This document shows positions 4,078 through 47,619 of a stretch of 64,000 nucleotides of DNA, piece by piece. Origin of the DNA: Acidimicrobiia bacterium (GTDB taxonomy: Bacteria > Actinomycetota > Acidimicrobiia > Spongiisociales > JAENVV01); NCBI GenBank assembly GCA_041628225.1, contig JBFKPQ010000002.1:824-64823 (forward strand). The letters are read 5' to 3'. The notes beneath the pieces are model-generated. The model searched no databases and was not told the origin of the DNA. It was given only the letters and a program-made list of their open reading frames with translations. Numbering within the stretch: the first letter of the stretch is position 1; each line of letters opens with the position of its first letter. Both the position numbers and the translations under genes were made by a program.

Positions 4078-4115
4078 GCACCGGTACCATGAGGTATTCC
4101 TCGAGAGATCACCTC

Positions 4116-12054: not shown

Positions 12055-12127
12055 GGGTCCGATTCTGCCGGACGGCTCCGGCCGATGCCGGGTTGGAACG
12101 TCCCAATCCCTCGGTAGCATCGGGGGA

Positions 12128-23545: not shown

Positions 23546-26500
23546 TCAGCGCGGCGCAATGGCGAAGACCTGGCCCGTCTCGCTCGTGACGAAGAGGACG
23601 TCGGTTCCCACCGCGGGCGACGTGACGATCCGTCCTCCGGCGTCGAATCGCCACACTTCCTCGCCATCGAGGGTGGCTGCCAGGACGAACCCGCTGACGG
23701 AGCCGGCATAGATCATGTCTCCGGCGATCACGGGAGGCCCGGTGTCGGTGAGGTCGGGGATCACCCAGAGAATGGTCCCGTCCGGCACGCTCATCGCCGT
23801 CAGCCGCGGCCCGTCGGCGTAGTAGACGACGCCGTCTGCAACCGCGACTTCGTCATTGAGGTCCACGCCCAACAACAGGGGCTGGGCTTCCACCAGTGAT
23901 GGGCACCGACCCTCGGCGAACTGGAAGAGATTGCCCCCTTGGGTGCCGACGTACACGATGCCATCCGAGATGGCCGGCGCGGTTCGGATGGCGGCGCCGG
24001 TCTCCAGCGTGCAGATGCCTTCGCCGGTGGTTGCGTCGACGAGGTGGAGGGTGCCGGCTTCGTCGCCGACGTAGATGATGCCATCGCTGGCCGTGGGGCT
24101 CCCGGTCATGGGCGGCCCTGGGTCGCCGGACGGGTATTGCCAGAGAACCGTGCCTTCTCCGGCCGCCAGGCCGTGGAGCCGGCCATCCCCGCCGCTCACG
24201 GCGACCATGTCGTATCGCTCACCGGACGGTGGGAAGATCCGAAAAACGATCGGCGTCGTGAGGACGGGCTCGCCGATCTCGTATTGCCAGAGGGGCCTTT
24301 GGTTCGAGTTGATCGCATCGCGGGCGTACACGCGACCGTCGTTGCTGCCGGCCACCAACATGCTGAGCGTCGACTCCCCGATGTCGACGGATCCGACCGT
24401 CGGTGTCGAGAGGACGGGCCCTCCTGTCTCCATTCGCCACAGCTGCGCCCCGGTCGTCTGGTCGACGGCGTAGATGAAGTGATCCGAGCTGCCGAAGTAC
24501 ACCCATTTCCCGAAGGCAACCGGCGACGTCCGGATGACGTCCCCTGCGGCGAATGTCCAGTAGATCCCGCCGACGTCGGGAACTCCTGCGGCGTCGAACA
24601 CGCCATCGTGCAGTGGTGACCCTCGCCATTCGGCCGAGCCCGACAAGCCGTCTTCGGGGACCGGAACGATGTTTCGCTCCAGAACGAACTGTGTCGTGGT
24701 GGTGCGGTCGACCGTGCGTTCAATGACGACCGTTCCTCCGGGAGAGAGGTCGAAGCCCCCGAGAGCGAACGTGGCACCGACCGAGAGCGCGACGACGGCG
24801 GCAGCGCCGACCAGGATGGCGACCGCACGACTCGCCGTGCGGACTGGTCGGCGGCGGACGACACCGGCGGCGCGGCGCTGCGACGGCGACAGCGGCGCAC
24901 CTCCTTCGTCCAACCCGAGACCTGCCCAGGCCTCCGCCAGTGCTTCGCGGAACTCGGGGGTCTCTTCGTCGACCGCTCCGGTGTGCTCGAGCGCGGCCGA
25001 TACGTGCGGCAGCTCTCGCCACGCCGGTTGCCATCCGGGTGGTAGCCGGTCGGCGAGTCCTCGCACCCTGTCGGCGACGCGGGCCGACGGGCCTTCTTCC
25101 CAGGCGTCGGCCGCATGCACGGCTCGGACGGTTGCCGGGAGGTTGCCGAGCTCGTCGGCGAGCGTGGCGGCGTGGCGTGCCAGTTCCGGGTCGGACTCGA
25201 TCGTGGCCCGATCCGTCATGAAGTCCACCGCCGCGCCGAACCACCTGGCCACGAGCAGTTCGTCGGTCAGGTTCTCGGCGTGCTCCTGGTCGTAGTCGCC
25301 GGTGGAGGCCTGATCGATGACGAGGCGCGCCGCCTCGCAGCGGCGCCTCCACCGCCATCCGTCGGCGCCTGGCGGGCAGGCTTCGATCGCCAGCCGGATC
25401 TCCGACTGCGCCGTGCCGGCATCGTCCGTGTGGAGGAATCCCTGAGCGCGATGGAACCGCGCCACGTTCTCCCATTGGGGAAGATGCGCCATCGTCAGGT
25501 CGAACAGCCCTTCGGCTTGTTCGGCGTAATCGGCCCAGCGCTCGAAGGTCGCGAGTCCTTCCGCCCGAGCCAACGCCGCCAGGAACAGCACGGAGGTGGC
25601 CCCGTTGGCGCGTGCCAGGTCCTCGGCGCGCCGGATGGCTTCCAGAGCGCCGGTCGCGTCGCCGGTGGAAAAAAGGGCCCGGCCCCAGTAGGCGAGCTGC
25701 GCGGCGAGCGCCCCCGGTCCAAGGTGCTCGGCCCGGTCGACGAGCGATGCAAACGACGCCTCGGCGTCGCGCGCCTGTCCGCGGTCCAACTCGATCCAGG
25801 CTCGGTGCGTGTCGACCGAATAGCGATGGTCCGCAACCTCCCCTTCTGCCGACGACTTGCGGAGGGCAGCGTCGGCTTCCTCGGGGAACCCCAGGCGAGA
25901 CAACGTCCGAGCGTGGAGAGCAAGGAGCGGCGGAAGCTGGTCTCGGGTGTCCGCGAGGTGCGCATCGAGTTCGGCCATGGCGAGATGGCGCTCCGCCTGC
26001 TGCGGTCGCTGCAGATCGTCGGCCAAGGTTGCGGCAAAGCCGCGCGCCGCCACCTTCGGAGCGCCTTCCAGCAGATCGACGGCCAGTTGGTTTTCTCGCG
26101 CGGCTCCGTCCGACCAGCCGGCCGAGCGCAGGAAGCGTGCTCGCATGTCGTGCAGCATCCCCGTCGTCTCGTCCCTGGCCTCAGGGTCGGCGTCGAGAGC
26201 CCGGCCGGCCAGCCAATACGCCTCGGCCGCCTGGCCGGTGTCGTGGCGCGCCTTGGCCAGGCGCGTGAACATGTCCCTGGCGCCCTCCGTATCGCCCGCT
26301 TGGGCCATCAATTCCGCCCGGGTGAGTTCGTCACTCTCGGGGACGGCTGCCAGCAGGCGCTGGGCGAGATGGGCTCTCCGCGCCGCCGTCAGCTCGATGG
26401 TATCGGACAGCGCCTCACCAGCTCCGTAGCCTTGGGGAGTGTCGATGGCGAGACCGGAACGAATGAGCCGGTCGCCCGCAGTGAGCACCGCGTTCTCTTC

Positions 26501-27223
26501 GAGGCCGGTGACCGTCGCGAGCGCATCGACTCGCACGGGATTCCCGGCGGTGACGAGGGCTTGGGCGACGGCTACCTGGGTCTCGTCGAGTGCATCCTGC
26601 GCCACCTGCGCGCCCGGTTCGATCGTCCACTGGTCTTCCGTGTGATCGAGCGAACCTGTGGCCGCCGATGCCCGGAGGCGGGCGAGAATCCGCCGGTCGT
26701 TGGCGCCACCGGCGAGAATGGCGTCGGCGAACGCTTCGACGCCGGGGCCCGTCAGCGCACCGGCCAGGTCCACTGAGTCGATGGGAATCAGGTCGAGTTC
26801 GTGAGTCGTCGCACCGGTCGTGGCTCGCATCTTGTTGATCGTGATGGCGACGAGGTCGTCAGAACGATCGGCGACCAACACCAGCGTCACCGGCCGATCG
26901 CCGGACGCCAACAGACGGTGGAGGTGTGCCAGTGAGCTGGCATCGGCCTTGCCGAGATCTTCGATCGCAATGAGGAGTGGACCGTCTTCCGGCAGGTCGA
27001 GCTGGTCGAGAACGTCGCCCGCCCGGGAAGGGTCGGTGCCGTGAGCGATGTGGGCTCCCAGGTCGTCGCGCAGCGCCTCCAGGAGGGGCCCCGCATCAGC
27101 CGGGGGAACCCGGTCGACGACGACGAGCTGGCTCGAGCCCTCCGCCTTCGACGCGATGTGCGCGGCCGAGATGCGCTCCCAGATGTCTCGGCGCAAGGTA
27201 CGGACGAATTCGATGGTTTCCAC
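23546..27223 (-). CDS. large multidomain membrane protein: degenerate STAND/AAA-like NTPase N-terminus, TPR-like helical middle, single TM, C-terminal extracytoplasmic PQQ-repeat beta-propeller
   Basis: 1225 aa with a strong SD (GAGGGAGG). Walker-B-like LLIAIEDLGKADASSLAHLHRLLA but no P-loop. TM helix AVAILVGAAAVVALSVGATFAL around residue 830. Repeated G.VY.G..DG.L.A.D..TG..LW propeller blades follow. Confidence 0.75.
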   Translation of the reverse strand: METIEFVRTLRRDIWERISAAHIASKAEGSSQLVVVDRVPPADAGPLLEALRDDLGAHIAHGTDPSRAGDVLDQLDLPEDGPLLIAIEDLGKADASSLAHLHRLLASGDRPVTLVLVADRSDDLVAITINKMRATTGATTHELDLIPIDSVDLAGALTGPGVEAFADAILAGGANDRRILARLRASAATGSLDHTEDQWTIEPGAQVAQDALDETQVAVAQALVTAGNPVRVDALATVTGLEENAVLTAGDRLIRSGLAIDTPQGYGAGEALSDTIELTAARRAHLAQRLLAAVPESDELTRAELMAQAGDTEGARDMFTRLAKARHDTGQAAEAYWLAGRALDADPEARDETTGMLHDMRARFLRSAGWSDGAARENQLAVDLLEGAPKVAARGFAATLADDLQRPQQAERHLAMAELDAHLADTRDQLPPLLALHARTLSRLGFPEEADAALRKSSAEGEVADHRYSVDTHRAWIELDRGQARDAEASFASLVDRAEHLGPGALAAQLAYWGRALFSTGDATGALEAIRRAEDLARANGATSVLFLAALARAEGLATFERWADYAEQAEGLFDLTMAHLPQWENVARFHRAQGFLHTDDAGTAQSEIRLAIEACPPGADGWRWRRRCEAARLVIDQASTGDYDQEHAENLTDELLVARWFGAAVDFMTDRATIESDPELARHAATLADELGNLPATVRAVHAADAWEEGPSARVADRVRGLADRLPPGWQPAWRELPHVSAALEHTGAVDEETPEFREALAEAWAGLGLDEGGAPLSPSQRRAAGVVRRRPVRTASRAVAILVGAAAVVALSVGATFALGGFDLSPGGTVVIERTVDRTTTTQFVLERNIVPVPEDGLSGSAEWRGSPLHDGVFDAAGVPDVGGIYWTFAAGDVIRTSPVAFGKWVYFGSSDHFIYAVDQTTGAQLWRMETGGPVLSTPTVGSVDIGESTLSMLVAGSNDGRVYARDAINSNQRPLWQYEIGEPVLTTPIVFRIFPPSGERYDMVAVSGGDGRLHGLAAGEGTVLWQYPSGDPGPPMTGSPTASDGIIYVGDEAGTLHLVDATTGEGICTLETGAAIRTAPAISDGIVYVGTQGGNLFQFAEGRCPSLVEAQPLLLGVDLNDEVAVADGVVYYADGPRLTAMSVPDGTILWVIPDLTDTGPPVIAGDMIYAGSVSGFVLAATLDGEEVWRFDAGGRIVTSPAVGTDVLFVTSETGQVFAIAPR

Positions 27224-35395: not shown

Positions 35396-35848
35396 ATGAG
35401 CGATCGCGTCCGCCGTTATGCCGAGGCCATGGCCGCACTCGACTCCGCCGCGCTCGCAGAGATGCGCCATGGAGACTACGAGTGCAGCTATCCCCAGTCG
35501 GGGGAACGCTTCGTTGGTCACGACGCATGGGCAGCCGCCCACGATGGCTACGCCGAACGCTTCGGATCGGTGGACACCGTCGTCACCACGCGAGGCGGCG
35601 AGCAACACGCCACGGTGAGCACGGTGTTGTCGCCGATCCCCTTTGCGTCGACGCCCATCATCGAGGTCTCCGACACCGGAGACCTCGGGGTCGTCGAGGG
35701 CCGGGGCACCTGGCCCGACGGCAAGCTGTACCACTGGGTCTTGATCTGCGAATACCGCGACGGTTTGGTGTGGCGTGAAGCGCAGTATTTCGCGGAACCG
35801 TTCGATGCCCCCGAGTGGCGGCGTCCGTTCGTCACGCCTGCCGACTAG
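35396..35848 (+). CDS. NTF2/SnoaL-like fold protein
   Basis: Size and pattern only (150 aa, ..HWVLICEYRDGLVWREAQYF..). Low specificity. Confidence 0.5.
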   Translation: MSDRVRRYAEAMAALDSAALAEMRHGDYECSYPQSGERFVGHDAWAAAHDGYAERFGSVDTVVTTRGGEQHATVSTVLSPIPFASTPIIEVSDTGDLGVVEGRGTWPDGKLYHWVLICEYRDGLVWREAQYFAEPFDAPEWRRPFVTPAD

Positions 35849-37088
35849 GGCGGCGACCAATGGCGTCGGAGGCGGCACGGGTTCGGCGCGCCAGACCGAT
35901 GAACGGCAATGCGGCGGCCATGACGAGGCCGCTCGCCACATAGGCGGCCGAGTACGACCAGACATCGGCGGCTCGTCCGAGCGAGGGCTGTGAGATGACA
36001 CCTCCGGTCGAACCCATCAGCGCATCGAACGACAGCACGGTGGCGCGCTGTTGCGATGGGACGATGCCGTTGAGGAACGACTGCCGAACCGGTGTGCTCG
36101 CCGAGAATCCCAGCGCCCACAGCGAGATCAGCACCAACGCCGGCCAGAAGCTCGACACCAGCCCCAAGCCGACGAGGACCAACACGCTGAGGCCGGTGGC
36201 CGCGACCAGCACGTCGGTTCGGCGCCGAAACACCCGACCCACCTGTGAGACGAGCAGCCCACCGACGATCTGTGCCCCGGCGACGATCGCCGCAGCCAAA
36301 CCGGCGATGCCGAAGGCGTTCGGGTCGCCGTACAGCTCGAGCAGATACGGCTGCATGGCATAGAACGCGAAGATGCCGGCGCCCGTCGTGAACGGTGCGG
36401 CGAGCATGAGCCACCGGACCGGCCGAAGCCGCCAGCCGTGTTCGACGGAGGCCGAGACCACGTCTCGGATCTCATCGAAAGCGCCGCCGCCGCGGTGCGG
36501 CGTGAAGCCCTCATCCCGCATCGACTTGGCCGCATAGACGAGTACGGCTCCCAGCAAGACCGCTCGCACCAGATAGGGCACGCCGAGGTTCGTCGCTTGC
36601 GCCAGCGCTCCGCCGGCAACGGACCCGGTCAGCATCGCGATGCCGGCCGCCGACTGTCCCCGGCCGAACACCGTCTCTAGTTCGCCGTCGTAGTCGTTGG
36701 CGGCCAGCGCGTCCACCAGCCACGCCTCGACGGCCCCACTGAAGAAGGTGAAGCCCAGTCCGATCAGGATCGAGGCGGACGCCCACCCCCACAAGGGGGC
36801 TTCGATCTGCCACATCAAGACGTACAGGAGCGTCGAGACCAGGAGCGTGGCAGAACCGAGGAGGTACGACGTCCGTCGCCCCTTCGTGTCGGCCACGACG
36901 CCGGTGGGGATCTCGAAGAGCATCTGGCCGGCCGTGAAGAAGGCGTTGACGCCGAAGGCGGCCGCGTTCGACAGACCGGCGTCGAGCAGGAACAGCGTAT
37001 TGATGCCCCAGATCAGCGAAGCGGCCAACGTCGACAGGACGGTGAGCGTCACATACGTCCGACGCACTCGCCGGACTCCGTCGTTCAT
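35832..37088 (-). CDS. MFS transporter
   Basis: 12-TM MFS pattern (GVVADTKGRRTSYLLG motif). Start at Met280 of the long ORF. Confidence 0.8.
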   Translation of the reverse strand: MNDGVRRVRRTYVTLTVLSTLAASLIWGINTLFLLDAGLSNAAAFGVNAFFTAGQMLFEIPTGVVADTKGRRTSYLLGSATLLVSTLLYVLMWQIEAPLWGWASASILIGLGFTFFSGAVEAWLVDALAANDYDGELETVFGRGQSAAGIAMLTGSVAGGALAQATNLGVPYLVRAVLLGAVLVYAAKSMRDEGFTPHRGGGAFDEIRDVVSASVEHGWRLRPVRWLMLAAPFTTGAGIFAFYAMQPYLLELYGDPNAFGIAGLAAAIVAGAQIVGGLLVSQVGRVFRRRTDVLVAATGLSVLVLVGLGLVSSFWPALVLISLWALGFSASTPVRQSFLNGIVPSQQRATVLSFDALMGSTGGVISQPSLGRAADVWSYSAAYVASGLVMAAALPFIGLARRTRAASDAIGRRPSRQA

Positions 37089-37172
37089 CGGCCGGACCCT
37101 AACCGCCCGTCGATGCGACGATCCTGTTCGCAACGGCCCGAGTCCATGGCGACCTGGCGGTAGCTTCGCCAC

Positions 37173-37763
37173 ATGAGTGACTTCTTCGACGTTCCGACCG
37201 TGGCGCCGGAACCGGAACGAGATCCCCCGCCTTGGGCCGAACCGCCACGCGATGTCGTGGCTGCGCTGGTCGCCGACCGTCGGGTCCTCATGGCGACAGA
37301 TCGTGTGTCGGTCACCCTGACCCACATCGATACCTATCCGACCGGCGCCGGCGTGCGTCTGCTGGTCATGGCGCGGCGGGTTCCGGACATGACCGAGGCG
37401 GACTGGCGGCGCAGCCAGGAAGTCGTATGGGGCCGGGCGGGCCCGCCGGCACCCGACGAGGTGTTCCGGGTCGGCGTGCAGTTCGCAGACGGTCAAAAGG
37501 CGACGAATCTCGATCAGGGTCATCATGCGTGGCCGGCGGATGAGCCCTCCGGCCCCCGCCTCACCGAATACGGCGGGGGCGGACGAGGTCACCGGGAGCT
37601 GATCGTGCACGGCCGCAACCTGTGGCTGTGGCCACTGCCGCCGCCCGAGCCGTTCGACCTCGTCATCGAGTGGCCCGCACTCGGGGTCCCGTTCACTCGG
37701 TCGAAACTCGACGGAGCCGCCATCGTGGCGGCCGCCGCCCGGTGCCGACCGGCGTGGAACTGA
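37173..37763 (+). CDS. hypothetical protein (196 aa, Pro-rich ends), family not recognised
   Basis: Clean ORF filling the gap between two MFS genes. No motif recognised. Confidence 0.45.
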   Translation: MSDFFDVPTVAPEPERDPPPWAEPPRDVVAALVADRRVLMATDRVSVTLTHIDTYPTGAGVRLLVMARRVPDMTEADWRRSQEVVWGRAGPPAPDEVFRVGVQFADGQKATNLDQGHHAWPADEPSGPRLTEYGGGGRGHRELIVHGRNLWLWPLPPPEPFDLVIEWPALGVPFTRSKLDGAAIVAAAARCRPAWN

Positions 37764-37764
37764 C

Positions 37765-39075
37765 CTAGACCGCGGCGCCGGCGCGGGCGTTCTCGAGCCG
37801 GTGGGTGGTGAAGGCCCGGATGCCGATGACGAACAACACGGCGTAGACGGCGGCCGCCACGAGGAAGGGGAGCCGCAGGGCGGTGATCCGGTCGGTGAAA
37901 GACTCGCCGCCCGAGACGATGACACCGGCGAGGACCGAGCCGATGGGCATCATGCCCCAGGCGAAGAAGCGGTATACCGAGTTCACCCGTCCCAGCAGGT
38001 GATCGGGAATGATCTCCTGTCGAAGCGACACGGTGATGACGTTCCACAACACAGCCACGAACGAGGTGACGGCGGCCATGGCGAAGACGACGCCCCAGCT
38101 CGACGTCAATCCGGTGACGGCGAGGCCGATCGCACTGACCGCCAGGACCGCCTGCAGAGACGTTCCCGATCCGATGCGCTTGGACACGCGCGATGCCAGC
38201 ACGCTGCCGGCCACGCCGCCGACCGCGCCCGACCACATGAGCACGCCGAAGCGAGCCGCATCGAGCCCGAGGACTTCCTGGACGAACAGCACATAGGTGG
38301 CGAACGACACCATGAGCAGTGCGTTCATGATGCCCAGGACGACGGCCAGCGTTCGCAGCAGACGGTGTTGCCACAGCCAGCGGACGCCTTCCTTGAGGTC
38401 CGCCCACCACGACGGTCGGGGGCCGGGCGCCTGTTCGGGTCGGAAGGCTCCGTGCAAGGAGATGATCAGGGCCCCGGCCACCGCGAAGGTCACGGCGTCG
38501 ACGAAGAAGGGCAGGGAGAAGGCCACCGCCAGGAGGAATCCACCGAGCGGCGGTCCGATGAAGCTGTTCGCCACCATTTCCCCGCCCCAGAGGCGTCCGT
38601 TGGCGCGCTCGAGCTGATCCTTCTCGACGACCGACGGCATGAGCGTCTGGGTTGCGTTGTCGGCGAGGACCTCGGCGACCCCGAATAGGAACGCGCCGAT
38701 GTACAGCATCGCGAGGAGCAGTCCGGCCGAGTCGGGGGCGGCTGCCGTTCCCGCCGCGAGGCCGTCCGGATCGGCGAGCGAACCCTGCACGGACCACACG
38801 ATCCCCCCCACGGCCAGAGTCAGCAGGAAACGGAACGCGTGCATGGATGCGACGAGCACCCGTCGGTCCATCCGGTCGGTGACGACGCCGGCCGGCAGCG
38901 TGAACAGCAGCCAGGGCAGCCGCGTGGCGACGAGGATGAGCGAGATCTGCAGCGGGTCGCGCGTGATGGCCGACGCCAGCCAGGGATAGGCGATCCCGGC
39001 GACGCCGTCCCCCAGGTTCGAGGTGACGTTGGCGGTGAAGAGGCGCCAATAGTTCGAGCCGAGCCGGGTGGTCAC
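37765..39075 (-). CDS. MFS transporter
   Basis: NYWRLFTANVTSNLGDGVAGIAYPWLA... 12 TM. GTG start chosen so as not to overlap the divergent GNAT. Confidence 0.75.
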   Translation of the reverse strand: MTTRLGSNYWRLFTANVTSNLGDGVAGIAYPWLASAITRDPLQISLILVATRLPWLLFTLPAGVVTDRMDRRVLVASMHAFRFLLTLAVGGIVWSVQGSLADPDGLAAGTAAAPDSAGLLLAMLYIGAFLFGVAEVLADNATQTLMPSVVEKDQLERANGRLWGGEMVANSFIGPPLGGFLLAVAFSLPFFVDAVTFAVAGALIISLHGAFRPEQAPGPRPSWWADLKEGVRWLWQHRLLRTLAVVLGIMNALLMVSFATYVLFVQEVLGLDAARFGVLMWSGAVGGVAGSVLASRVSKRIGSGTSLQAVLAVSAIGLAVTGLTSSWGVVFAMAAVTSFVAVLWNVITVSLRQEIIPDHLLGRVNSVYRFFAWGMMPIGSVLAGVIVSGGESFTDRITALRLPFLVAAAVYAVLFVIGIRAFTTHRLENARAGAAV

Positions 39076-39126
39076 CGGGCGAATACTGGCACGCGCGCCG
39101 CGGGTCGACTGGGTACCTTCACATGC

Positions 39127-39627
39127 ATGGAGATCCGACCTGCCACCGTCACAGATGCCGAACGCGTGGCCTTCATCCACATCCGCAGCTGGCAGGCGGC
39201 CTATCGGGGCCTCATCCGCCAGGACTACCTCGACGGCCTCGACGAGACATTCGACCGCCGAGTCGAGTGGTGGACCTCTCAGGCGAACGGCCCCGGCGTG
39301 TTCCTGGTGGGCGAGACGGACGCCGGAGAGCTAGCCGGGTTCGCCAGCGCCGGCCGCGCTCGAGAGGACCATGAACTCGGAGAGCTGTACGCCATCTATC
39401 TCCTCGCCGAGGCGTGGGGGAGTGGATTGGGTGCGCCGCTGCTCGAGGGTGCCACGGATCGCCTTCGTGAGAGCGGATACGACGAGGCGATCCTCTGGGT
39501 GCTCGACTCCAACGGTCGGGCGCGCCGATTCTACGAAAAGCATGGATGGCACTCCGACGGTGGGGCAAAGATCGAGCTCTGGGGTGACCTCGCCCTGTCG
39601 GAGGTCCGCTACCGGCGCGCGCTCTAG
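39127..39627 (+). CDS. GNAT family N-acetyltransferase
   Basis: MEIRPATVTDAERVAFIH...LYAIYLLAEAWGSGLGAPLL...RRFYEKHGW. Confidence 0.8.
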   Translation: MEIRPATVTDAERVAFIHIRSWQAAYRGLIRQDYLDGLDETFDRRVEWWTSQANGPGVFLVGETDAGELAGFASAGRAREDHELGELYAIYLLAEAWGSGLGAPLLEGATDRLRESGYDEAILWVLDSNGRARRFYEKHGWHSDGGAKIELWGDLALSEVRYRRAL

Positions 39628-40418
39628 GTGCGGGCGCGGCGGCGCATCGCCACGAACAGCACGATCGCTCCGGCGACGGAGGCCACAGCCGCCCCACTGA
39701 GCACCGGGTCGGGTTTCGGCAGCTCGGCGAGCCGGCTCCGGATGGACACCGGGTTCTTGAACGACATGATCTGCCAGTCGGACTCGATGGCGAGATGGCG
39801 GAGCTCCTTGTCGGGGTTGACCGCGACCGGATGTCCGACGACCTTCAGCATGTGGCTGTCGGTGAACGAGTCCGAGTAGGCGTACGAATCCTCGAGTGAG
39901 ATGCCGTCCCGCCGCGCCATCTCGACCATGGCTTCGGCCTTGCCGGCCGCATAGGCGTAGAACTCGAGTTCGCCGGTGTAGCGGCCGTCCTCACCCACCT
40001 TCGACTGGGTGGCGATCACGTCGGTGATTCCGAGGTAGCCGGCGAGGGGCTTGACGACCTCGTACGGGCTGGACGAGATCACCACCACCCGGCGACCTGC
40101 TTTGCGGTGTTCTTCGATGATCGCCAGTGCCTCGGCATACACGAGCGGCGCCACGACCTCGTCGACGGTCTCCTTGACGAGCCGTTCGATCTCGAAGCGG
40201 TCCCACCCCTTGGTGAGGGCGGTGAGTTGCTCACGGACCTTCTCGAGCTGATCGTGATCGGCTCCGAACATCATGTAGACGACCTGGGCGATCCCGGCCT
40301 TCACCAGCGACCGGCGGTTCAGGAAACCTGCCTTGTACAGAGGCCGTCCGAAGGCGAGCGTCGACGACTTGGCGATGATCGTCTTGTCCAGATCGAAGAA
40401 TGCAGCGGCGGTGGACAT
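39624..40418 (-). CDS. HAD-IB family hydrolase (phosphoserine-phosphatase-like), C-terminal membrane anchor
   Basis: AAFFDLDKTII...VVVISSSPYEVVKPLA...AYSDSFTDSHML... Confidence 0.8.
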   Translation of the reverse strand: MSTAAAFFDLDKTIIAKSSTLAFGRPLYKAGFLNRRSLVKAGIAQVVYMMFGADHDQLEKVREQLTALTKGWDRFEIERLVKETVDEVVAPLVYAEALAIIEEHRKAGRRVVVISSSPYEVVKPLAGYLGITDVIATQSKVGEDGRYTGELEFYAYAAGKAEAMVEMARRDGISLEDSYAYSDSFTDSHMLKVVGHPVAVNPDKELRHLAIESDWQIMSFKNPVSIRSRLAELPKPDPVLSGAAVASVAGAIVLFVAMRRRART

Positions 40419-40513
40419 GGCATTAAGTCTATTCGGCTGTCCGAACTTCGACGACCAAGCCTCCTTCTTCGCACATCTCAGGGCGTTTCGCAAGGGGTTG
40501 TCGGGGCCCGGTC

Positions 40514-41086
40514 ATGCCCATACGTTCGTTGGGCGAGAAGGGATGCGTTCTGCCGTTGCTCCATGTTCAGACCAACCACGACGGCTTGTTGTCCGCCATC
40601 GCCCCGCTCGGGCTCGGAGCGGCGGCGGGAACGGCGCTCGTCGTCGACACCGACCCGGATGGGCCCGCCTATCCGGGGAGCGCCAGTCTCGCCGCGATGC
40701 TCGCCGAAGGGCCACGGCGTGCCGACCTCACTCCGGCTCGGGCAGGCCTGGCGGTGCTGCGAAGCGGTGGAGCGAGCCTGGCGGAGGCGGGGGATCTGCT
40801 CGGCGCGCTCGCTTCGGGCTGGCCGGCGGTGGTCGTTCGGGTGCCGGCACGCCAACCGGTCGACGGGCCGGTCGTTCCGGTCGCGCCGGCTCTGCCGGGA
40901 GCGCTGGCCGAGCGCCCGGCGGCACGACATGTCGTGCAGGCCACCGGCCTCGCGCCCGCACCGCGCGACGGCATCGTGCTCCCGCGACCGTCCGGGCGGC
41001 TCGTGCGCGACCTGTTGAGCGGCGTCGTCCGTCCTCGCGATCGCTGGATCAGAGCCTGGCGTCCCGTATGGGAGGTCGTGTGGTGA
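40514..41086 (+). CDS. hypothetical protein at head of tad operon, possible degenerate TadZ/CpaE-like (no Walker A)
   Basis: Position immediately upstream of tadA, with the stop overlapping the tadA start. LVVDTDPDGPAYPG resembles a ParA/MinD switch region, but the P-loop is absent. Confidence 0.4.
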   Translation: MPIRSLGEKGCVLPLLHVQTNHDGLLSAIAPLGLGAAAGTALVVDTDPDGPAYPGSASLAAMLAEGPRRADLTPARAGLAVLRSGGASLAEAGDLLGALASGWPAVVVRVPARQPVDGPVVPVAPALPGALAERPAARHVVQATGLAPAPRDGIVLPRPSGRLVRDLLSGVVRPRDRWIRAWRPVWEVVW

Positions 41087-42147
41087 CGGCCTTCGAACGC
41101 ATCACCCGCCGGATCATCGACAGCGGCGTACCGCTCGACCGCGACTCCCTCGACGCCGCCGTGCGTCCACTGATCGCGGCCGAGGCGCCGTTGGCGCCCG
41201 AAACCTTGGCCGTGGACATCGTCGACGGATTGATCGGCCTCGGGCCCCTCGAACGCCTCCTCGCCGACCCGCAGGTCTCCGACATCCTCGTCAATGGGCC
41301 AGACGACGTCTGGGTCGAACGATCGGGCGTCCTCAGCCGATCAGACGTCGCCTTTCCGAGCGAAGCCGCCGTGGTGGCCGCCGTCGAGCGGGTCCTCGCA
41401 CCGCTCGGTCTGCGCATCGATCGGGCGGCGCCCATGGTGGATGCACGGCTCGCCGACGGATCTCGGCTGCACGCGGTCATTCCGCCGGTGGCCGTGCCGT
41501 CTCCGATCGTCGCGATCCGGCGATTCACGGCGGCGGTCGCGAGCCTGTCGGAACTCGTCTCGTCGGGAGCCGTCGATGAGGTCGGTGGGCGTCTTCTGGC
41601 GGACCTCGTCCACCGGCGCCAGACCATCGTCGTAGCGGGCGGAACCGGTACGGGAAAGACGACCTTGCTCAACGTCTTGTCCACCGAGATCCCAGCCCAC
41701 GAGCGGGTCGTGACGGTCGAAGACGCCGCCGAGCTCCGCCTGGCGGGGCACGTGGTTCGGCTCGAGGCGCGGCCTCCCAACGTGGAGGGTGCCGGCGAGG
41801 TCACCGTGCAGCAGCTCGTTCGCTCGGCGCTGCGGCTCCGACCCGACCGCATCATCGTCGGAGAAGTGCGCGGACCCGAAGCGCTCGACATGATCTGGGC
41901 GCTGAACACCGGCCATCGAGGTTCGATGTCGACGGTCCACGCCAACAGTCCCGACGAGGCGCTGTGGCGTCTGGAGACGCTGGCTTTGTCCGGCGATCGA
42001 AAGGTGGGCGAGGACGCCGTTCGCCGGCAGCTCCGTGCGGCCGTCGACATCATCATCCAGGTCGGGCGGGTGGCGGGGCGTCGCGCCGTCGTGGCCATCG
42101 GCGAGGTGGGTGTCGACGGACCCGTCGTACCGCGGTGGCCACTGTGA
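41080..42147 (+). CDS. tadA: Tad/Flp pilus assembly ATPase TadA/CpaF
   Basis: Walker A VVAGGTGTGKTTLLN, Asp box, Walker B RPDRIIVGEVRG, His box LNTGHRGSMSTVHANS. SD GGGAGG. Confidence 0.9.
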   Translation: MVTAFERITRRIIDSGVPLDRDSLDAAVRPLIAAEAPLAPETLAVDIVDGLIGLGPLERLLADPQVSDILVNGPDDVWVERSGVLSRSDVAFPSEAAVVAAVERVLAPLGLRIDRAAPMVDARLADGSRLHAVIPPVAVPSPIVAIRRFTAAVASLSELVSSGAVDEVGGRLLADLVHRRQTIVVAGGTGTGKTTLLNVLSTEIPAHERVVTVEDAAELRLAGHVVRLEARPPNVEGAGEVTVQQLVRSALRLRPDRIIVGEVRGPEALDMIWALNTGHRGSMSTVHANSPDEALWRLETLALSGDRKVGEDAVRRQLRAAVDIIIQVGRVAGRRAVVAIGEVGVDGPVVPRWPL

Positions 42148-42803
42148 CAGCACTCATCCTCGCTGCGCTGGTCGCCGCCCCGGTTCCGTGGCCCCATGTG
42201 GGCGTCGTCGGCTGGGCCGTGGTGCACCCGTCGGCCGCCGTTCCGGTGGTGGCCGCGGCATGGTGGGCACGCCGCCGGTCCGGCTGGGAGCAGATGACGG
42301 AGGTCCAGTATCTGACGGCGATCGCGGCCGAGCTGCGCTCCGGAGCGACCGTCCGTCGGGCGTTGGACATGGCCGCGGGACCCAAACCGGCGCCTGCGTT
42401 CGCTGCCATAGGGCGTCTCTGTCGAGCCGGCCTGCCGGCTGCAGACATCGCCGAATCGCTCCGCGCAGCGCTGCCGCGGAACGGGATCGCTGCGGCCACA
42501 GCCTTCGAGATCTCCGTGGAGACAGGCGGTGCTGCAGCGGCAGCTTTCGACGAGCTGGCACATCAGGCGGCCGAGCGTGCCGTCCTGGCCGGAGAGCTGC
42601 GACTGGCAACCGCGCAGGCACGGGTGTCGGGCCTCATCGTGGGCGGGCTACCGATGCTCATGTTGGGATGGCAGGCGGCGACGGGTCGGTTGGGTGTGGT
42701 CTTGGCCACCGGAGTCGGTCGGTACGCGGTGGGAGTCGGGTCGCTCCTGGTCGTCGCGGGTGGGGCCGTGATGTGGCGGATGATCGTCGGAGCGCTCCGA
42801 TGA
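42144..42803 (+). CDS. tadB: Tad pilus inner-membrane protein TadB-like (T2SS-F domain)
   Basis: GTGA overlap with tadA. TM-helical-TM topology (219 aa). Confidence 0.65.
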   Translation: MTALILAALVAAPVPWPHVGVVGWAVVHPSAAVPVVAAAWWARRRSGWEQMTEVQYLTAIAAELRSGATVRRALDMAAGPKPAPAFAAIGRLCRAGLPAADIAESLRAALPRNGIAAATAFEISVETGGAAAAAFDELAHQAAERAVLAGELRLATAQARVSGLIVGGLPMLMLGWQAATGRLGVVLATGVGRYAVGVGSLLVVAGGAVMWRMIVGALR

Positions 42804-43420
42804 TGCTCGTGGGCCTCGGTGCCGCCTCCCTGATCTGGCTCGCCCTGCCGGGTCACCCGGTGGCGGCTGCCGTAGCCGGTGGTCTGTTGGTGGCCCCCGG
42901 CCCGACGATCGCAGGTGCGCTGGGCGTCGTCGCACGGCGCCGGATCCGAGCCGCCCGCCATCGCCGACGGGCAGCTGTCGAAGCCGAAGCCGCGATCAGT
43001 CACCTCGCTCGCAACCTCTCGATCGCGCTGGCGGCAGGCCTGGCGGTCCCCGTCGCCCTCGACCGCGCTGCCCGGCCAGTGCACCGGGTCGTTCGCGAGG
43101 AAGTCGAAGCCGTGCTGAGGGCGGCGCGCTCACACGGTCTGGCGGTCGCGCTCGCCGACGCCGGAGGTCACACGGGGCGGCTCATGTCGGTCTTGGCGCG
43201 CGCCCAGTCTTCGGGGGCGCGTGTCCGTCGTGCCGTCGCTTCGTTCATCGAAGAACGCAACGAGATCCACCGGCAATCGGTTACCGAGCAAGCGCGCAAA
43301 CTGCCCGTCAAACTCACAGTCCCGCTGGCGTTGCTCATCCTGCCGGGCTTCGTGATCGTCACCGTGGGCCCGTCGGTGATCGAATCGGTGCGGCGGCTAC
43401 TCGGGCCGCTGCTCCCCTGA
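42800..43420 (+). CDS. tadC: Tad pilus inner-membrane protein TadC-like (T2SS-F domain)
   Basis: ATGA overlap with tadB. 206 aa with an N-terminal TM and C-terminal TMs. Confidence 0.65.
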   Translation: MMLVGLGAASLIWLALPGHPVAAAVAGGLLVAPGPTIAGALGVVARRRIRAARHRRRAAVEAEAAISHLARNLSIALAAGLAVPVALDRAARPVHRVVREEVEAVLRAARSHGLAVALADAGGHTGRLMSVLARAQSSGARVRRAVASFIEERNEIHRQSVTEQARKLPVKLTVPLALLILPGFVIVTVGPSVIESVRRLLGPLLP

Positions 43421-43471
43421 TGTGCTTCCCCCCGGGCCGGCCGGCCGCCGGCGTACCCAGAAAGGAGCGTC

Positions 43472-43642
43472 ATGTTGTCTGTGCTACGTGACGAAGACGG
43501 GCAGGGCACCGTCGAATACGTGTTGGTGATCCTCGCCGCGGCGGCGATCGCCCTCGCTCTGATCGGATGGATGAGTTCCGACGGGCTGCTTCCCAGCTTG
43601 TTCAGCACCATCCTCCAGAAGGTCATCGGTTTCGTCGGGTGA
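43472..43642 (+). CDS. flp: Flp family type IVb prepilin (56 aa)
   Basis: Not in the ORF track (under 60 aa). RBS AAAGGAG. MLSVLRDEDGQGTVEYVLVILAAAAIALALIG carries the G/xxxxEY prepilin cleavage motif and a hydrophobic stretch. Confidence 0.8.
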   Translation: MLSVLRDEDGQGTVEYVLVILAAAAIALALIGWMSSDGLLPSLFSTILQKVIGFVG

Positions 43643-43995
43643 CCGGTGAGCGAGGATCGGCCACGGTCGAGTTTGCGCTCATCCTTCCAGCGGTGGTGCT
43701 CGTGATCCTTGCGGTCGCCGAGATCACGGTGGTTGCGAGGACGCAGTTGGAGCTCGCCCATGCCGCCCGAGAAGGCGCCCGCGTTGCGGCGACGGCGCCG
43801 GATCCCGATGCGGCCATTCGTGCCGCGCGGGAGGCGCTGTCGGACGGGCTGGCACACCGGGTTTCCGTCTCGGTGTCGCGCCCGTCGATCGTGGGGCGTC
43901 CCGCCTCGGTCGAGCTGCGGGCCACGCATCGGGTGGTCGGCCTCGGGTGGGTTGTGCCCATCCAGGCATCGGCCTCGATGCGGGTGGAGCGGTGA
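43639..43995 (+). CDS. TadE-like pilus assembly/pseudopilin protein
   Basis: GTG overlaps the flp stop (GTGA). GERGSATVEFALILPAVVLVILAVAEI is the TadE N-terminal signature. Confidence 0.7.
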   Translation: MTGERGSATVEFALILPAVVLVILAVAEITVVARTQLELAHAAREGARVAATAPDPDAAIRAAREALSDGLAHRVSVSVSRPSIVGRPASVELRATHRVVGLGWVVPIQASASMRVER

Positions 43996-44375
43996 CGGAA
44001 GCCGGTTCCGTGTCGGTGATCGCCGTGGCGACGCTGGTCGTCGTGGCGGTTGCCGGCCTCGCCATCGGTGCGCTGGCGCAGACTCAGCACGGCGCGTGGC
44101 GCGCCCAGACGTCGGCCGACGCGGCGGCCCTGGCGGCCGCGTCGGCCACCTTCCCGCCCGTCGGTGCCGGCGCGCCTCGAGACGAGGCGGTCGCCATCGC
44201 CGCGGCCAACGGTGGCCAGTTGCTCGACTGTGTGTGCTCGGTGGACGCGTCGTTTGCTGTCCGCAGCGTGGACGTGACGGTGGCGGTGAACGTGACGATC
44301 CTCGGATACGGACGCGCCACCGTCGTGCGGTCGGCGCGAGCCGAGTTCGACCCGGTGGCTGCGCTGGGGTGGTGA
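43992..44375 (+). CDS. TadE/TadG-like membrane protein
   Basis: GTGA overlap with the previous gene. VTEAGSVSVIAVATLVVVAVAGLAIGALAQ. Confidence 0.6.
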   Translation: MTEAGSVSVIAVATLVVVAVAGLAIGALAQTQHGAWRAQTSADAAALAAASATFPPVGAGAPRDEAVAIAAANGGQLLDCVCSVDASFAVRSVDVTVAVNVTILGYGRATVVRSARAEFDPVAALGW

Positions 44376-44422: not shown

Positions 44423-45370
44423 GTGGCCCCGACCGACAGTGGACCCATGGGACGCGTAGACGCGAACCCGGACGTGGGGGACATCGTCGAGCCGAACGTC
44501 GGTGAGGGCTGGATGATCGCCGAGGTGTGGCGGGCCTGGCCCCCGCCGCACAACGCGGTGCGCGGCGAGTTGGCGCATCAGGACGCACTCGTCGCCCTCG
44601 CCGGGCCGCCGCGCCGGCTCGGCTATCTAATCCCCGTCGAAGTCACCTTCGAACGCGACCTGACGAACGCTCGGAACCCGTGGTCGTGGTCGGCAAGCGT
44701 CGACGAGACCGTCGTCGGTGTCCTCGATGCGGAGATCGCCTCGCTGATCACACCAGACCTCGCTCGAGCGGTCACCGAGAAGTTCACCGTGGCGGGTGTC
44801 GTGCGCGGTGGTTCGACCCGCACTCCGACCCTCGGCGTGCATGTTTGGCTCGGACGAGCCATCACGCCGACGCCACGTCTGGACCTCGGCCCGAGGTTGG
44901 AGGTCCACTGGCCACCGTTCGATCATGAGGGTGAAGAGACCGTCCGCACCGGCTTGTCGTCGATGAGCGCATGGGCCGACGTCGATCTTCGCAATCCGAT
45001 CGCCGCGATCCACCGAGCCCGCGACATGCTGTCCACCTCGATCGACCATCTGGACCGGCACTTCGCCTTCGTCGTGCTGGAAGAAGCGCTCTACCAATGC
45101 CGCGACGCCATCTCGGGCGCACTCGACGATTTCGACGAAACCTGCTCCATGCACGATTTCGAGATGGACGCCATACGTCCGGTGCTCGTCGAACGCTTCG
45201 GCGGAGTGCCGGTCCTTTCCACCTATCGCCAGATGGCGATCCGCCGGGTCAAGCAAGGCGATCCAGCCGCAGCGGCGTGGTGGTGCCGGCGCGGGCTGAA
45301 ACTCTACGGCACCGAGGCGTTGCGACGCGACGCGGTCGACGATCTGCGCGATCGCCTCGCCGGCTTCTAG
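44423..45370 (+). CDS. hypothetical protein (315 aa), family not recognised
   Basis: Clean ORF directly downstream of the tad genes. No motif recognised. Confidence 0.45.
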   Translation: MAPTDSGPMGRVDANPDVGDIVEPNVGEGWMIAEVWRAWPPPHNAVRGELAHQDALVALAGPPRRLGYLIPVEVTFERDLTNARNPWSWSASVDETVVGVLDAEIASLITPDLARAVTEKFTVAGVVRGGSTRTPTLGVHVWLGRAITPTPRLDLGPRLEVHWPPFDHEGEETVRTGLSSMSAWADVDLRNPIAAIHRARDMLSTSIDHLDRHFAFVVLEEALYQCRDAISGALDDFDETCSMHDFEMDAIRPVLVERFGGVPVLSTYRQMAIRRVKQGDPAAAAWWCRRGLKLYGTEALRRDAVDDLRDRLAGF

Positions 45371-47619
45371 GCGATGACGGCGCGGAGCAGGGCGAGTGAG
45401 CCTGCCTTGTCGAGCGGCTCGTTGAAGTTGCCGCACTTGGGCGACTGCACGCAGCTCGGGCATCCCGCCAGACAAGGGCACTCCTCGATGGCGTCGGCGG
45501 TGGCCTCGAGATGGCGGGAGCGGATGTCGTAGGCGATGGCTGAGATGCCCGCTCCACCGGGGATGCCCTCATAGATGAACACGGTCGCTTCGCCGGCGAA
45601 CGGGTGCCAGTTGGTCGACAGGCCGCCGATGTCCCAACGGTCGCACACCGCAAACAGCGGCAACATGGCGATCCCGGCGTGTTCGGCGGCGTGCAGGGTC
45701 CCCAACAGCCGCGCGTCACCTATCCCCGCAGACTGCAACAGCCCGGTCGGAACCGTGTACCAGATGGCGTGCGTGTCGAACACGGTCGGCGGCAGGTCCA
45801 GCCAGTCATGTTCGAGGATCTCGCCGGTGCCCAACTTGCGCTTCTGATACCCGACGACGTGGCTCTCCACCCGCACAGACCCGAGGTGGTACGTGAGACG
45901 CCCGAGGCGGGTGGAAGCGGCCACCTCGAGCACGTCGAGGTTCTTCTCCTGTTGGGTCTGCGTGTAATGGCCGACCGTGCGGGCCGTCACTCGGACCTCG
46001 CGGCGGTCGAGGTCGAGTTCGTCGACTTCGAACGTGTCCCCCTGATGGAGGTAGACGGCTCCGCGATGGCCGTCCCGAAACGCGCGCTGCTCTTCCATGG
46101 TGCCCAACACCTCGCCGTCGGCGACGATCGTGTAGGCCGGTCCGCCGGATGAGCGGATACCTACCCGCGGCGCCGGTGCTTGGCGATGGGACCAGAACAG
46201 CCGGCCCCGCTGCATGTCGAGGTGTCCCTGGCCGACGAGTTCGGTGACGGCTTCCTCCATCGCAGGGCCGAGGAACTCGCGGTCGGACAACTCGAGGGGG
46301 AGTTCGTGGGCGGCGCAGGCGGTGTGCGCCTCGACCACGAGAGGGTTGTCTGGATTCACGACCACCGCCTCGGGGTCACGCGTGAACAATTCCGCCGGGT
46401 GGTGCATGAAGTATTGGTCGAGAGCGTCCTCGCCGGCCACGAGCACCGCCAGCGACTGCGCCTGCGTGCGGCCGGCGCGTCCGGCCTGCTGCCGGAACGA
46501 GGCGATCGTCCCCGGGAAGGTGTTGATGAGGGCGGCGTCGAGGGACCCGACGTCGATACCGAGTTCGAGCGCGTTCGTGGCGGTGACGCCCAGCAGCTCT
46601 CCGGAGAACAGCGCAGCCTCCGTTTCCCGTCGGGCCTCAGCCAGATAGCCGGCCCGATACGGAGCGATGCGATCCTGGCGCGTGTCGTCGAGTCGGTCAC
46701 GAGCCCATCGATACATCAGTTCGGTGGCCTTCCGAGAGCGGCTGAAAGCGATCGTCGGTCGGTCGTGCCGGACCAGGTCGACGAACAGGTCCGTGGTCTC
46801 GGCCATCGCCGATCGTCGGCGCCCGGTGCCGGGATCCTCGAGCGCGGGATTCCACAACGCGACGAGCTTGCTGCCGGAGGGCGAGTCGTCGGCGTCGAGC
46901 ACGGTGACCGGCGTGCCGGTGATCCGTTCCGCCAACGCCCCCGGGTTGCCGATCGTGGCCGAGGTGAGGATGAAAGTGGGGTTCCCGCCGTAGTGGGCGG
47001 CGAGCCGACGCAGCCTGCGAATGATCAGGGCGACGTGGCTGCCGAAGATGCCCCGCAGCATGTGCATCTCGTCGATTACGACGTAGCGGAGGCGCAAGAA
47101 GAAGTTGGCCCACTTGGCGTGGTTGGGCAGGATTCCGACATGCAGCATGTCGGGGTTCGTGAGGATCACGTTGGCGTGCCGTCGGGCCCACACGCGGTCG
47201 TCGGGTGGGGTATCGCCGTCGTACGCGCTGGCGACCAGCTCGGGAACGCCGAGGGCGCCGATCGACCGCAGCTGATCTCGAGCCAGGGCCTTCGTCGGGT
47301 AGAGCGCGAGTGCGGTCGCCTTGGGGTCGGAAAGGATGGCTTCGGCGATCGGGAGTGTGTAGCAGAGGGTCTTGCCGCCCGCCGTGCCCGCCACCACCAC
47401 GACGTTCTCGCCTGAGCGGATGTGGTCGATGGCGCGGGCCTGGTGTCGGTAAAGGCGCTCGATGCCTCGTTCGGCGAGTAGCCCGGCCAAGGTGGGCTGC
47501 AGGGCCGGTCGCGGGTCGCCGTAGATGGCCCGACGCGCGCCGACCTCCTCGACGTGGACGAGTTCACCCTCCAGGTCCGGGTCATGTGCCCAGGCGGCAA
47601 CGATCTCACGCAACGTCAT
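45367..47619 (-). CDS. DEAD/DEAH-box helicase with C-terminal DUF1998 zinc-finger (YprA/MrfA family)
   Basis: Walker A AGTAGGKT, DEMH box, SAT motif, helicase-C motifs, and a C-terminal CPCLAGCPSCV...KCGN metal-binding DUF1998. Confidence 0.85.
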   Translation of the reverse strand: MTLREIVAAWAHDPDLEGELVHVEEVGARRAIYGDPRPALQPTLAGLLAERGIERLYRHQARAIDHIRSGENVVVVAGTAGGKTLCYTLPIAEAILSDPKATALALYPTKALARDQLRSIGALGVPELVASAYDGDTPPDDRVWARRHANVILTNPDMLHVGILPNHAKWANFFLRLRYVVIDEMHMLRGIFGSHVALIIRRLRRLAAHYGGNPTFILTSATIGNPGALAERITGTPVTVLDADDSPSGSKLVALWNPALEDPGTGRRRSAMAETTDLFVDLVRHDRPTIAFSRSRKATELMYRWARDRLDDTRQDRIAPYRAGYLAEARRETEAALFSGELLGVTATNALELGIDVGSLDAALINTFPGTIASFRQQAGRAGRTQAQSLAVLVAGEDALDQYFMHHPAELFTRDPEAVVVNPDNPLVVEAHTACAAHELPLELSDREFLGPAMEEAVTELVGQGHLDMQRGRLFWSHRQAPAPRVGIRSSGGPAYTIVADGEVLGTMEEQRAFRDGHRGAVYLHQGDTFEVDELDLDRREVRVTARTVGHYTQTQQEKNLDVLEVAASTRLGRLTYHLGSVRVESHVVGYQKRKLGTGEILEHDWLDLPPTVFDTHAIWYTVPTGLLQSAGIGDARLLGTLHAAEHAGIAMLPLFAVCDRWDIGGLSTNWHPFAGEATVFIYEGIPGGAGISAIAYDIRSRHLEATADAIEECPCLAGCPSCVQSPKCGNFNEPLDKAGSLALLRAVIA

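Follow-up and report, generated by a model that had tools for sequence, protein, structure and literature searches.

Which protein heads a Tad pilus operon when the expected localization ATPase, TadZ, cannot be recognized at its usual place? This question is raised by positions 40514–44375 of a 64,000-nt stretch of DNA from an Acidimicrobiia bacterium (assembly GCA_041628225.1, contig JBFKPQ010000002.1, positions 824 to 64,823; hereafter the window), where seven open reading frames (ORFs), all on the plus strand and of about 69–71% GC, encode in succession a protein of 181–190 residues, TadA, TadB, TadC, a Flp prepilin and two TadE-like proteins. TadZ/CpaE is the ParA/MinD-family localization and assembly factor of Tad pili, as in Aggregatibacter, Caulobacter and Eubacterium rectale (PDB code 3FKQ). 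A preliminary description of the window had credited the first gene, here termed g190 (40514–41086, plus strand), with only a faint ParA/MinD signature and no Walker A motif, and had called TadZ degenerate or replaced. The first part is borne out by the analysis below and, of the two terms, degenerate fits better, as g190 sits at the tadZ/ssd position in orthologous loci. It is predicted to be a MinD/ParA-fold protein with a trimmed core, devoid of both the P-loop and the receiver-like (REC) domain, and is probably a pseudo-ATPase variant of TadZ and an inert scaffold. What is new here is this TadZ/Ssd derivative without P-loop and REC, which recurs in all Acidimicrobiia loci inspected; the tad island is otherwise ordinary.

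A search of a 5.8-billion-protein set returned 271 homologues of g190 (E≤0.01), typically of 178–185 residues, and the codon-position GC of g190 (0.82/0.59/0.79) is close to that of TadB (0.78/0.59/0.78) and TadC (0.81/0.54/0.79). Therefore, g190 is a real gene, and not the non-coding or frameshifted ORF that the preliminary description had allowed for. The family has a mean column identity of 52% and 15 invariant residues, including D40, G45, P46, G80-G81, W98, R104, Q137 and W173. Given this conservation in the g190 frame, three overlapping ORFs, one in the +1 frame (40107–41018) and two on the minus strand (40478–40930 and 40669–40974), were rejected; they display Arg/Ser/Pro-rich junk translations or atypical codon-position GC. 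The start of g190 is ambiguous (ATG 40514, TTG 40529 or TTG 40556). Most family members begin with MPALA.W, equivalent to about position 40550 of the window; thus, the true start may be one of the two TTG codons and not the ATG. The homologues are all unnamed or annotated as ‘hypothetical’, the named ones being mostly from Acidimicrobiia metagenome-assembled genomes (MAGs). No Pfam or NCBIfam model matches g190 even at E≤1. The family carries the label ‘hypothetical’ in hundreds of Acidimicrobiia MAGs and has no model in either database, and no description of it was found in the searched literature. A family hidden Markov model places a member directly 5′ of tadA in 12/12 Acidimicrobiia loci (L001–L004, L006–L012 and L014).

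The AlphaFold2 model of g190, built on an alignment of 120 sequences, has a mean predicted local distance difference test (pLDDT) score of 92 and a predicted template modelling score (pTM) of 0.89. Foldseek comparison of the model with the PDB returned almost only MinD/ParA-class SIMIBI nucleoside triphosphatases (NTPases) as top matches, with a probability of 1.00 and query TM-scores (TMq) of 0.55–0.61. The best match is BcsQ (6yay, E 3e-4), accompanied by FlhG (4rz2), Soj (2bek) and MinD (1hyq, TMq 0.60); FleN, HypB, NifH and the Wzc/CapB kinases are also among the top matches. BcsQ, FlhG/FleN and MinD, the best structural neighbours, all bind nucleotide as dimers and have their deviant Walker A motif intact; they share only 12–17% sequence identity with g190. 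As a positive control, the positional orthologue of about 218 residues that heads the tad operon in other Acidimicrobiia/Acidimicrobiales and carries a KGGxGTT motif was modelled in the same way (pLDDT 94); it matches largely the same PDB families with TMq values of 0.75–0.79 and E 1e-9. In comparison with this control, the g190 model retains β1-α1-β2, β3-α-β4 (including the Walker B strand) and β5, and lacks the helices after β4 and β5. The β1-α1 loop, which holds the P-loop in the control, spans four residues in g190 and six in the control. Overall, g190 falls short of the length of a MinD domain by about 60 residues, and it begins only about nine residues before β1 of the MinD-like core. 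Consistent with this early start, the N-terminal REC domain is absent, and neither PF26563 nor any response-regulator model matches the protein.

The same relationship was recovered by profile-profile alignment. For this purpose, 42 diverse TadZ ATPase domains were gathered upstream of tadA in a genome scan. Against this set, the g190 family aligns with hhalign over residues 11–111 (probability 62%, E 7e-5). Mycobacterial Ssd (E 9e-4) gives the same register, with residues 24–111 of g190 equivalent to residues 153–257 of Ssd, a segment that starts directly after the GGRGGAGAS loop of the latter. This register aligns β1, the P-loop and helix 1 and shows how the motifs have been lost: the xKGGxGxT of the P-loop corresponds to T-P-E-D-G-L-L-G in g190, the VLLVDLD of TadZ to ALVVDLDP, and the hhhhD of Walker B (VVvDlP in the TadZ set) to VV.R(L/V)P, where an arginine occupies the position of the Walker B aspartate. 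Within the family, the stretch equivalent to the P-loop contains a lysine in none of the 120 members, Asp18 is found in 113 of 120 and Arg104 in all 120. The loss of both Walker A and Walker B suggests that g190 does not bind nucleotide. The C-terminus of g190 forms a conserved, strongly amphipathic Trp/Arg segment (RW[VI]RAWRxVWxxPW) with tryptophans at i, i+4, i+8 and i+12; its hydrophobic moment is about 0.8.

To place g190 among its relatives, genome contigs were scanned with a profile from a TadA alignment, and the proteins 5′ of tadA were classified in the 80 loci found. The classic TadZ class, found in Firmicutes, Proteobacteria, Acidobacteriota, some Actinomycetota and Solirubrobacterales, consists of proteins with an N-terminal receiver-like domain and KGGxGK[ST] or, more often, KGGxG[AT][TS]. 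Among the 42 TadZ-like ATPase domains, KGGxGK[ST] is present in 11, and KGGxG[AT][TS], without the canonical lysine, in 27; thus, partial degeneracy of the P-loop is the norm for TadZ and not the exception. The protein 5′ of tadA in an Actinomycetes MAG (L078) carries HGGAGTT. Mycobacterium Ssd (P0249, L005:10001–11053; Rv3660c) has GG[RC]GGAGAS at Walker A and thereby lacks both the signature lysine and the canonical P-loop lysine; this loop is invariant across 12 aligned mycobacterial sequences. The Rv3660c sequence is 100% identical to P0249, which is annotated as a ‘helicase/secretion CpaE-like protein [M. tuberculosis]’.

The Acidimicrobiia loci L056, L059 and L066 contain the proteins of about 218 residues used as the control above, which have no N-terminal domain and display WS(V/P)KGG(A/S/T)GTT; those of L056 (5249–5917) and L066 (1273–1953) are examples of REC-less KGGxGTT proteins that head a tad operon. 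This family has more than 1,700 matches, weak matches to CbiA, BcsQ and ParA models, and annotations that vary between hypothetical, BcsQ(-like) and MinD-like. L056 and L066 also carry the helicase gene of the window, and L056 its HAD gene as well; these two loci are therefore orthologous and not paralogous systems. g190 and the KGGxGTT proteins (alignments A6/A7) occupy the same position (in L056, the HAD gene, the protein in question, TadA and, farther on, the helicase), come from the same class of organism and both lack the N-terminal domain. In contrast to g190, the KGGxGTT proteins retain the signature lysine, the glycine-rich loop and the full MinD fold, and they are only marginally alignable to it.

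Arranged by motif, the orthologous loci form a series of decay that runs from KGGxGK[ST] through KGGxG[AT]T and the GG[RC]GGAGAS of M. tuberculosis Ssd to no motif, and g190 is the most reduced state of this P-loop series. Read as steps and with the receiver domain included, the order may have been REC with KGGxGK[ST], KGGxG[AT]T, GG[RC]GGAGAS as in Ssd, REC-less KGGxGTT, and finally REC-less without a P-loop. A tentative extension, which we consider somewhat less probable than its opposite, is that g190 marks the endpoint of a stepwise decay of TadZ in Actinomycetota, in which the role of TadZ in monoderm Tad machines would be purely structural and independent of nucleotide. If so, the smallest module able to organize TadA at the membrane would consist of a MinD core of about 180 residues and an amphipathic tail rich in Trp and Arg, and the M. 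tuberculosis ‘Ssd’ would likewise be a pseudo-ATPase scaffold of a pilus rather than a MinD-like division ATPase. Ssd itself may be a pseudo-ATPase, as judged by its motifs, and its lack of Walker A lysines bears on how the annotation ‘septum site-determining’ is to be read.

Compared with TadZ/CpaE (properties taken from PMC13170226, PMC11407121 and PMC8467076), g190 keeps the position directly 5′ of tadA, which it overlaps by 4 nt (or 19 nt), as well as the predicted MinD/ParA core, the amphipathic C-terminus and, following helix 1, the ‘hhhhDxDxxG’ strand. It lacks the atypical receiver domain and the deviant Walker A, which is present as KGGxG[KAT][TS] in 38 of the 42 TadZ domains, and the Walker B aspartate is an arginine.

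Several observations weigh against this assignment and the pilus reading built on it. The Foldseek TM-scores are moderate. g190 does not match the Ssd model TIGR03815 at E≤1, a model that gives 382 bits for M. tuberculosis Ssd, 64.8 bits for L078 and 20.7 bits for L059. With the family of about 218-residue KGG proteins (40 sequences), hhalign recovers the same register only weakly (probability 3%, E 0.015), and two KGG-type sequences gave no signal. The g190-family profile found nothing among PDB sequences but a chance match to an α/β-hydrolase (E 0.24), and in 1.84 billion cluster representatives the HMMER family profile collected 130 proteins, all of them members or fragments of the g190 family and none a P-loop NTPase. 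The C-terminal helices, modelled with high pLDDT, might just as well be packed against the core and thereby unavailable to the membrane. That g190 does not bind ATP, that it binds TadA and that its C-terminus anchors it at the membrane we infer in each case. As to the pilus, the NCBIfam scores of the other genes are mostly slightly under the curated cutoffs, and maturation of the pilin is assumed, as no prepilin peptidase was found in the window. Longer profile matches considered as P-loop intermediates (P0187, P0233, P0236 and P0123) were discarded as frameshifted or chimeric calls or N-terminal over-extensions.

Part of this evidence would also suit an unrelated small α/β protein that has displaced TadZ, with the resemblance to MinD/ParA reduced to a generic likeness among Rossmann-like three-layer folds: the absence of a HMMER-level link to any P-loop family, the E-value of 0.015 with the closest P-loop-bearing Acidimicrobiia family and the TM-scores of only 0.55–0.61. 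Against this reading, the top 34 Foldseek matches are exclusively MinD/ParA-type SIMIBI NTPases, with no other Rossmann folds or CheY among them, and β1, helix 1, the VVDLDP stretch and the Walker B strand fall in the correct register in three independent hhalign comparisons. The identical position in orthologous loci flanked by the same helicase (and by the HAD gene in L056) and the graded decay among relatives also speak against displacement, which is considered unlikely. Derivation from the other half of TadZ/Ssd, the N-terminal CheY-like domain (Rv3660c_N), is suggested by size, as both are small α/β domains and g190, at about 180 residues, is shorter than a full MinD domain. It is very improbable, given that g190 has no match to PF26563 or response-regulator models, that no CheY-like structure is among the top Foldseek matches, and that the aligned segment of Ssd (153–257) belongs to the C-terminal ATPase-like domain.

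A different alternative accepts the relationship and questions the function, such that g190 would be an Ssd-like regulator of cell division, acting at the septum site, that merely shares the tad operon. The M. tuberculosis orthologue Rv3660c owes the name Ssd to the filamentation that follows its overexpression (PMC3095998), and NCBIfam names TIGR03815 ‘septum site-determining protein Ssd’. The coupling of g190 to tadA by a 4-nt overlap (19 nt from the ATG) and the restriction of the family to the position directly 5′ of tadA in all 12 loci speak instead for a pilus component, as does the structural role that CpaE/TadZ proteins have in Tad machines (PMC13170226, PMC11407121). Moreover, MinD-like patterning normally requires ATP-dependent dimerization, and g190 lacks the motifs for it. 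A division regulator is accordingly judged improbable, marginally more so than displacement by an unrelated protein.

With g190 taken as a TadZ derivative, the locus can be read in terms of established Tad biology (PMC10191384, PMC13170226, PMC4322843). The TadA hexamer would power the TadB/TadC platform, which would polymerize the 56-residue Flp once a TadV-type peptidase, whose gene would lie at another site of the genome, has cut it at G/QGTVEY; the two TadE-like minor pilins would prime the filament. The lack of a secretin would follow from the monoderm cell envelope. According to PMC13170226, TadZ/CpaE is ubiquitous in Tad systems, and its ATP-dependent dimers and REC domains ring the motor ATPase. 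In the arrangement derived from cryo-electron tomography and modelling, six ATP-dependent CpaE dimers surround CpaF, with REC domains bridging the dimers, and a C-terminal amphipathic helix of CpaE sits on the membrane (PMC13170226). Since g190 lacks both REC and the Walker motifs, CpaE-like ATP-dependent dimerization and REC ring contacts are not expected. As a diverged TadZ/CpaE/Ssd orthologue, g190 would neither bind nor hydrolyse ATP and may serve as a structural adaptor at the membrane, docked on TadA or around it, where its Trp/Arg C-terminus may stand in for the membrane-binding C-terminal helix of CpaE/MinD. Such a nucleotide-independent scaffold or adaptor for TadA, as predicted from the sequence, seems a fairly likely role. 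TadZ is absent altogether from Micrococcus luteus, where the tad genes are required for transformation (PMC4322843). The output of the pilus encoded here could be adhesion or, by analogy with the M. luteus tad genes, DNA uptake. That a conserved lineage has retained this first gene of the operon and shed the P-loop, the Walker B aspartate and REC amounts to a natural dissection experiment. Candidate sites for the essential contacts of TadZ with TadA or the membrane are therefore the surfaces still conserved in g190, namely VVDLDPxGPxYPG, RNGG, GWP..V.R and the tail with W-x3-W-x3-W.

GTGA or ATGA overlaps of 4 nt occur at five of the six junctions of the seven genes: between the g190 stop (41086) and the TadA GTG (41083), preceded 7 nt upstream by a GGGAGG Shine-Dalgarno sequence; the TadA stop (42147) and the TadB GTG (42144); the TadB stop (42803) and the TadC ATG (42800); the Flp stop (43642) and the TadE1 GTG (43639); and the TadE1 stop (43995) and the TadE2 GTG (43992). 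An alternative TadA start at ATG 41068 would give a 19-nt overlap with g190. The exception is the junction between the TadC stop (43420) and the flp ATG (43472), where a 51-nt spacer contains GAAAGGAG, ending 4 nt 5′ of the ATG; the 4-nt overlaps that the preliminary description had seen throughout are thus confined to the other five junctions, whereas its gene order is correct, with all ORFs present in that order and on the plus strand. The operon shares an intergenic region of about 95 nt (40419–40513) with a divergent HAD gene. Promoter and terminator consensus scans gave nothing above the expectation from shuffled sequences, and Rfam had no match in the whole window. The best explanation is that the seven genes form a single operon with translational coupling and encode the Tad/Flp type IVc pilus machine of a monoderm, without a secretin, as known from the ‘helicase/secretion neighbourhood’ of actinobacteria; with the role of g190 included, we regard this explanation as quite probable.

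The pilus genes proper were assigned with Pfam and NCBIfam profiles. TadA (41083, or ATG 41068, to 42147) matches PF00437 T2SSE (3.2e-56), and its best NCBIfam match is TIGR03819 heli_sec_ATPase, a ‘TadA family conjugal transfer-associated ATPase’ (1.9e-95, 320 bits versus a cutoff of 373). In translation it is a TadA/CpaF-type secretion ATPase, similar to Rv3659c, in which both Walker motifs (Walker A being GGTGTGKTT), the Asp box and the His box are intact. The inner-membrane platform proteins TadB (42144–42803, similar to Rv3658c) and TadC (42800–43420, similar to Rv3657c) contain a single PF00482 T2SSF domain each, with 4.6e-6 and 27.1 bits for TadB and 1e-10 and 42.1 bits for TadC (gathering score 25.2). 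The TadE-like minor pilin TadE1 (43639–43995, similar to Rv3655c) matches PF07811 TadE above the gathering score (4.3e-12, 46.4 bits) and NF041390 TadE_Rv3655c below its cutoff (4.3e-8, 33.6 bits versus 40); its N-terminus reads ERG/SATVEF. The TadE/TadF-like minor pilin TadE2 (43992–44375, Rv3654c family) matches PF13400 Tad above the gathering score (1.2e-6, 29.1 bits) and TIGR03816 below its cutoff (3.5e-11, 43.3 bits versus 50.95). Its N-terminus, EAG/SVSVIAV, has no Glu at +5.

The Flp-type prepilin of 56 residues (43472–43642, similar to Rv3656c) was correctly located in the preliminary description by its G/QGTVEY motif: it matches PF14029 (DUF4244) significantly (2.8e-8, 33.5 bits versus a gathering score of 27), and GAAAGGAG lies just upstream. 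Its sequence, MLSVLRDEDG/QGTVEYVLVILAAAA, contains the G/XXXXEY motif described for Flp (PMC4322843), with the processing site DG/QGTVEY (DG/QGTVEYVLVILAAAAIALALIGW) followed by a hydrophobic helix. Of the profiles proposed for confirmation, T2SSE, T2SSF and TadE (PF07811) are significant, whereas PF04964 Flp_Fap remains below threshold (17.2 bits versus a gathering score of 32.2), as does Flp1_like, and DUF4244 takes its place. DUF4244 also covers the gene at the Rv3656c position in Mycobacterium and in other Acidimicrobiia. The gene had been called unannotated, which holds only with respect to the ORF-length cutoff used there; gene callers predict the small gene in relatives.

A prepilin peptidase (TadV/CpaA, peptidase A24) was sought in the window as well. 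No candidate with a GxGD[VA]K motif was found in the six frames of the 64 kb, and Pfam scans identified no peptidase among the multi-transmembrane ORFs of the window, which proved to encode cation efflux, HTTM, MFS, H+-PPase and MMPL proteins. In actinobacteria tadV is typically unlinked (PMC4322843), and a window free of the peptidase is the usual actinobacterial norm. The locus is therefore complete, as first described, as a seven-gene island of the actinobacterial type, and not complete in the sense of including a peptidase within the 64 kb.

On the left, the operon is flanked by a divergent HAD-IB hydrolase gene similar to Rv3661 (39624–40418, minus strand; TIGR01490, 1.4e-54), which is also found in L003, L005, L008, L010 and L056. 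On the right, about 1 kb 3′ of TadE2, lies a convergent DEAH-box helicase gene similar to Rv3649 (45367–47619, minus strand), which matches TIGR03817 ‘helicase/secretion neighbourhood’ (2.9e-261, 868.9 bits versus a cutoff of 874.1) as well as PF00270, PF09369 and PF22982. A helicase is likewise located 3′ of the tad genes in L006, L007, L011, L056 and L066. The order on this side is a 315-residue ORF, the helicase and a LytR-CpsA-Psr gene, followed farther out by H+-PPase, PhoH-PIN and topA genes. The region belongs to the chromosomal core rather than to a mobile element.

The M. tuberculosis cluster reads tadZ(Rv3660c)-tadA-tadB-tadC-flp-tadE-tadF (PMC9531140), and the Mycobacterium locus L005 consists of a minus-strand HAD gene, Ssd/Rv3660c_N, T2SSE, two T2SSF genes, DUF4244, a 95-residue ORF and Tad. 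The window shares with Rv3660c-Rv3654c (and with Rv3661 HAD and Rv3649 helicase) the gene order and strand, the divergent HAD gene, the nearby DEAH/MZB helicase and a regional topA, and the profiles T2SSE/TIGR03819, two T2SSF, DUF4244, TadE_Rv3655c and TIGR03816. Both lack a secretin and a linked prepilin peptidase. The correspondence to the actinobacterial tad island Rv3654c-Rv3660c that had been proposed thus holds gene for gene and extends to the TIGR03817 helicase and topA, and the match of flanks and order to the Rv3649-Rv3661 neighbourhood indicates that the island itself is of an already known type. The differences lie mainly in the first gene, which encodes 181–190 residues here and about 350 in M. 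tuberculosis, lacks the Rv3660c_N CheY-like domain and the glycine-rich loop (GGRGGAGAS in M. tuberculosis) and does not match TIGR03815. Additionally, the other genes of the window score just under curated cutoffs, and the 315-residue ORFan between TadE2 and the helicase is extra.

This ORF (44423–45370, plus strand) has a coding-like GC at third codon positions of 0.81 and no Pfam or NCBIfam match. It was rejected as an eighth, conserved member of the operon, being missing from all related loci: in the related Acidimicrobiia tad loci, a helicase or LytR gene directly follows TadE2. It looks like a lineage-specific ORFan insertion. The helicase is of the MrfA/Hrq1-like repair type, as shown by its Zn-binding domain of MrfA (PF09369) and its winged helix of the HRQ1 type (PF22982). 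Its synteny with tad genes, conserved across Actinomycetota, is suggestive of a DNA-related role and is not evidence for one.

Elsewhere in the window, a 196-residue ORF of coding-like composition and without a Pfam match (37173–37763, plus strand) is located between two minus-strand MFS genes (35832–37100 and 37765–39180). A 1225-residue protein (23546–27223, minus strand) has no Pfam match at E≤1e-5 in its N-terminal region of about 880 residues and contains PQQ/β-propeller repeats in its C-terminal part. Two genes of the 2-oxoacid dehydrogenase E1 type are also present (4074–7655, plus strand, and 9994–12456, minus strand). The first encodes 1193 residues, in which a Kgd/SucA-like part is fused to an E2 acyltransferase domain, and the second an 820-residue E1 α-β fusion. 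The longest ORF of the latter runs into the 5′ end of a class I/II aminotransferase gene on the opposite strand (11981–13204), so that the start of one of these two genes has probably been placed too far upstream.

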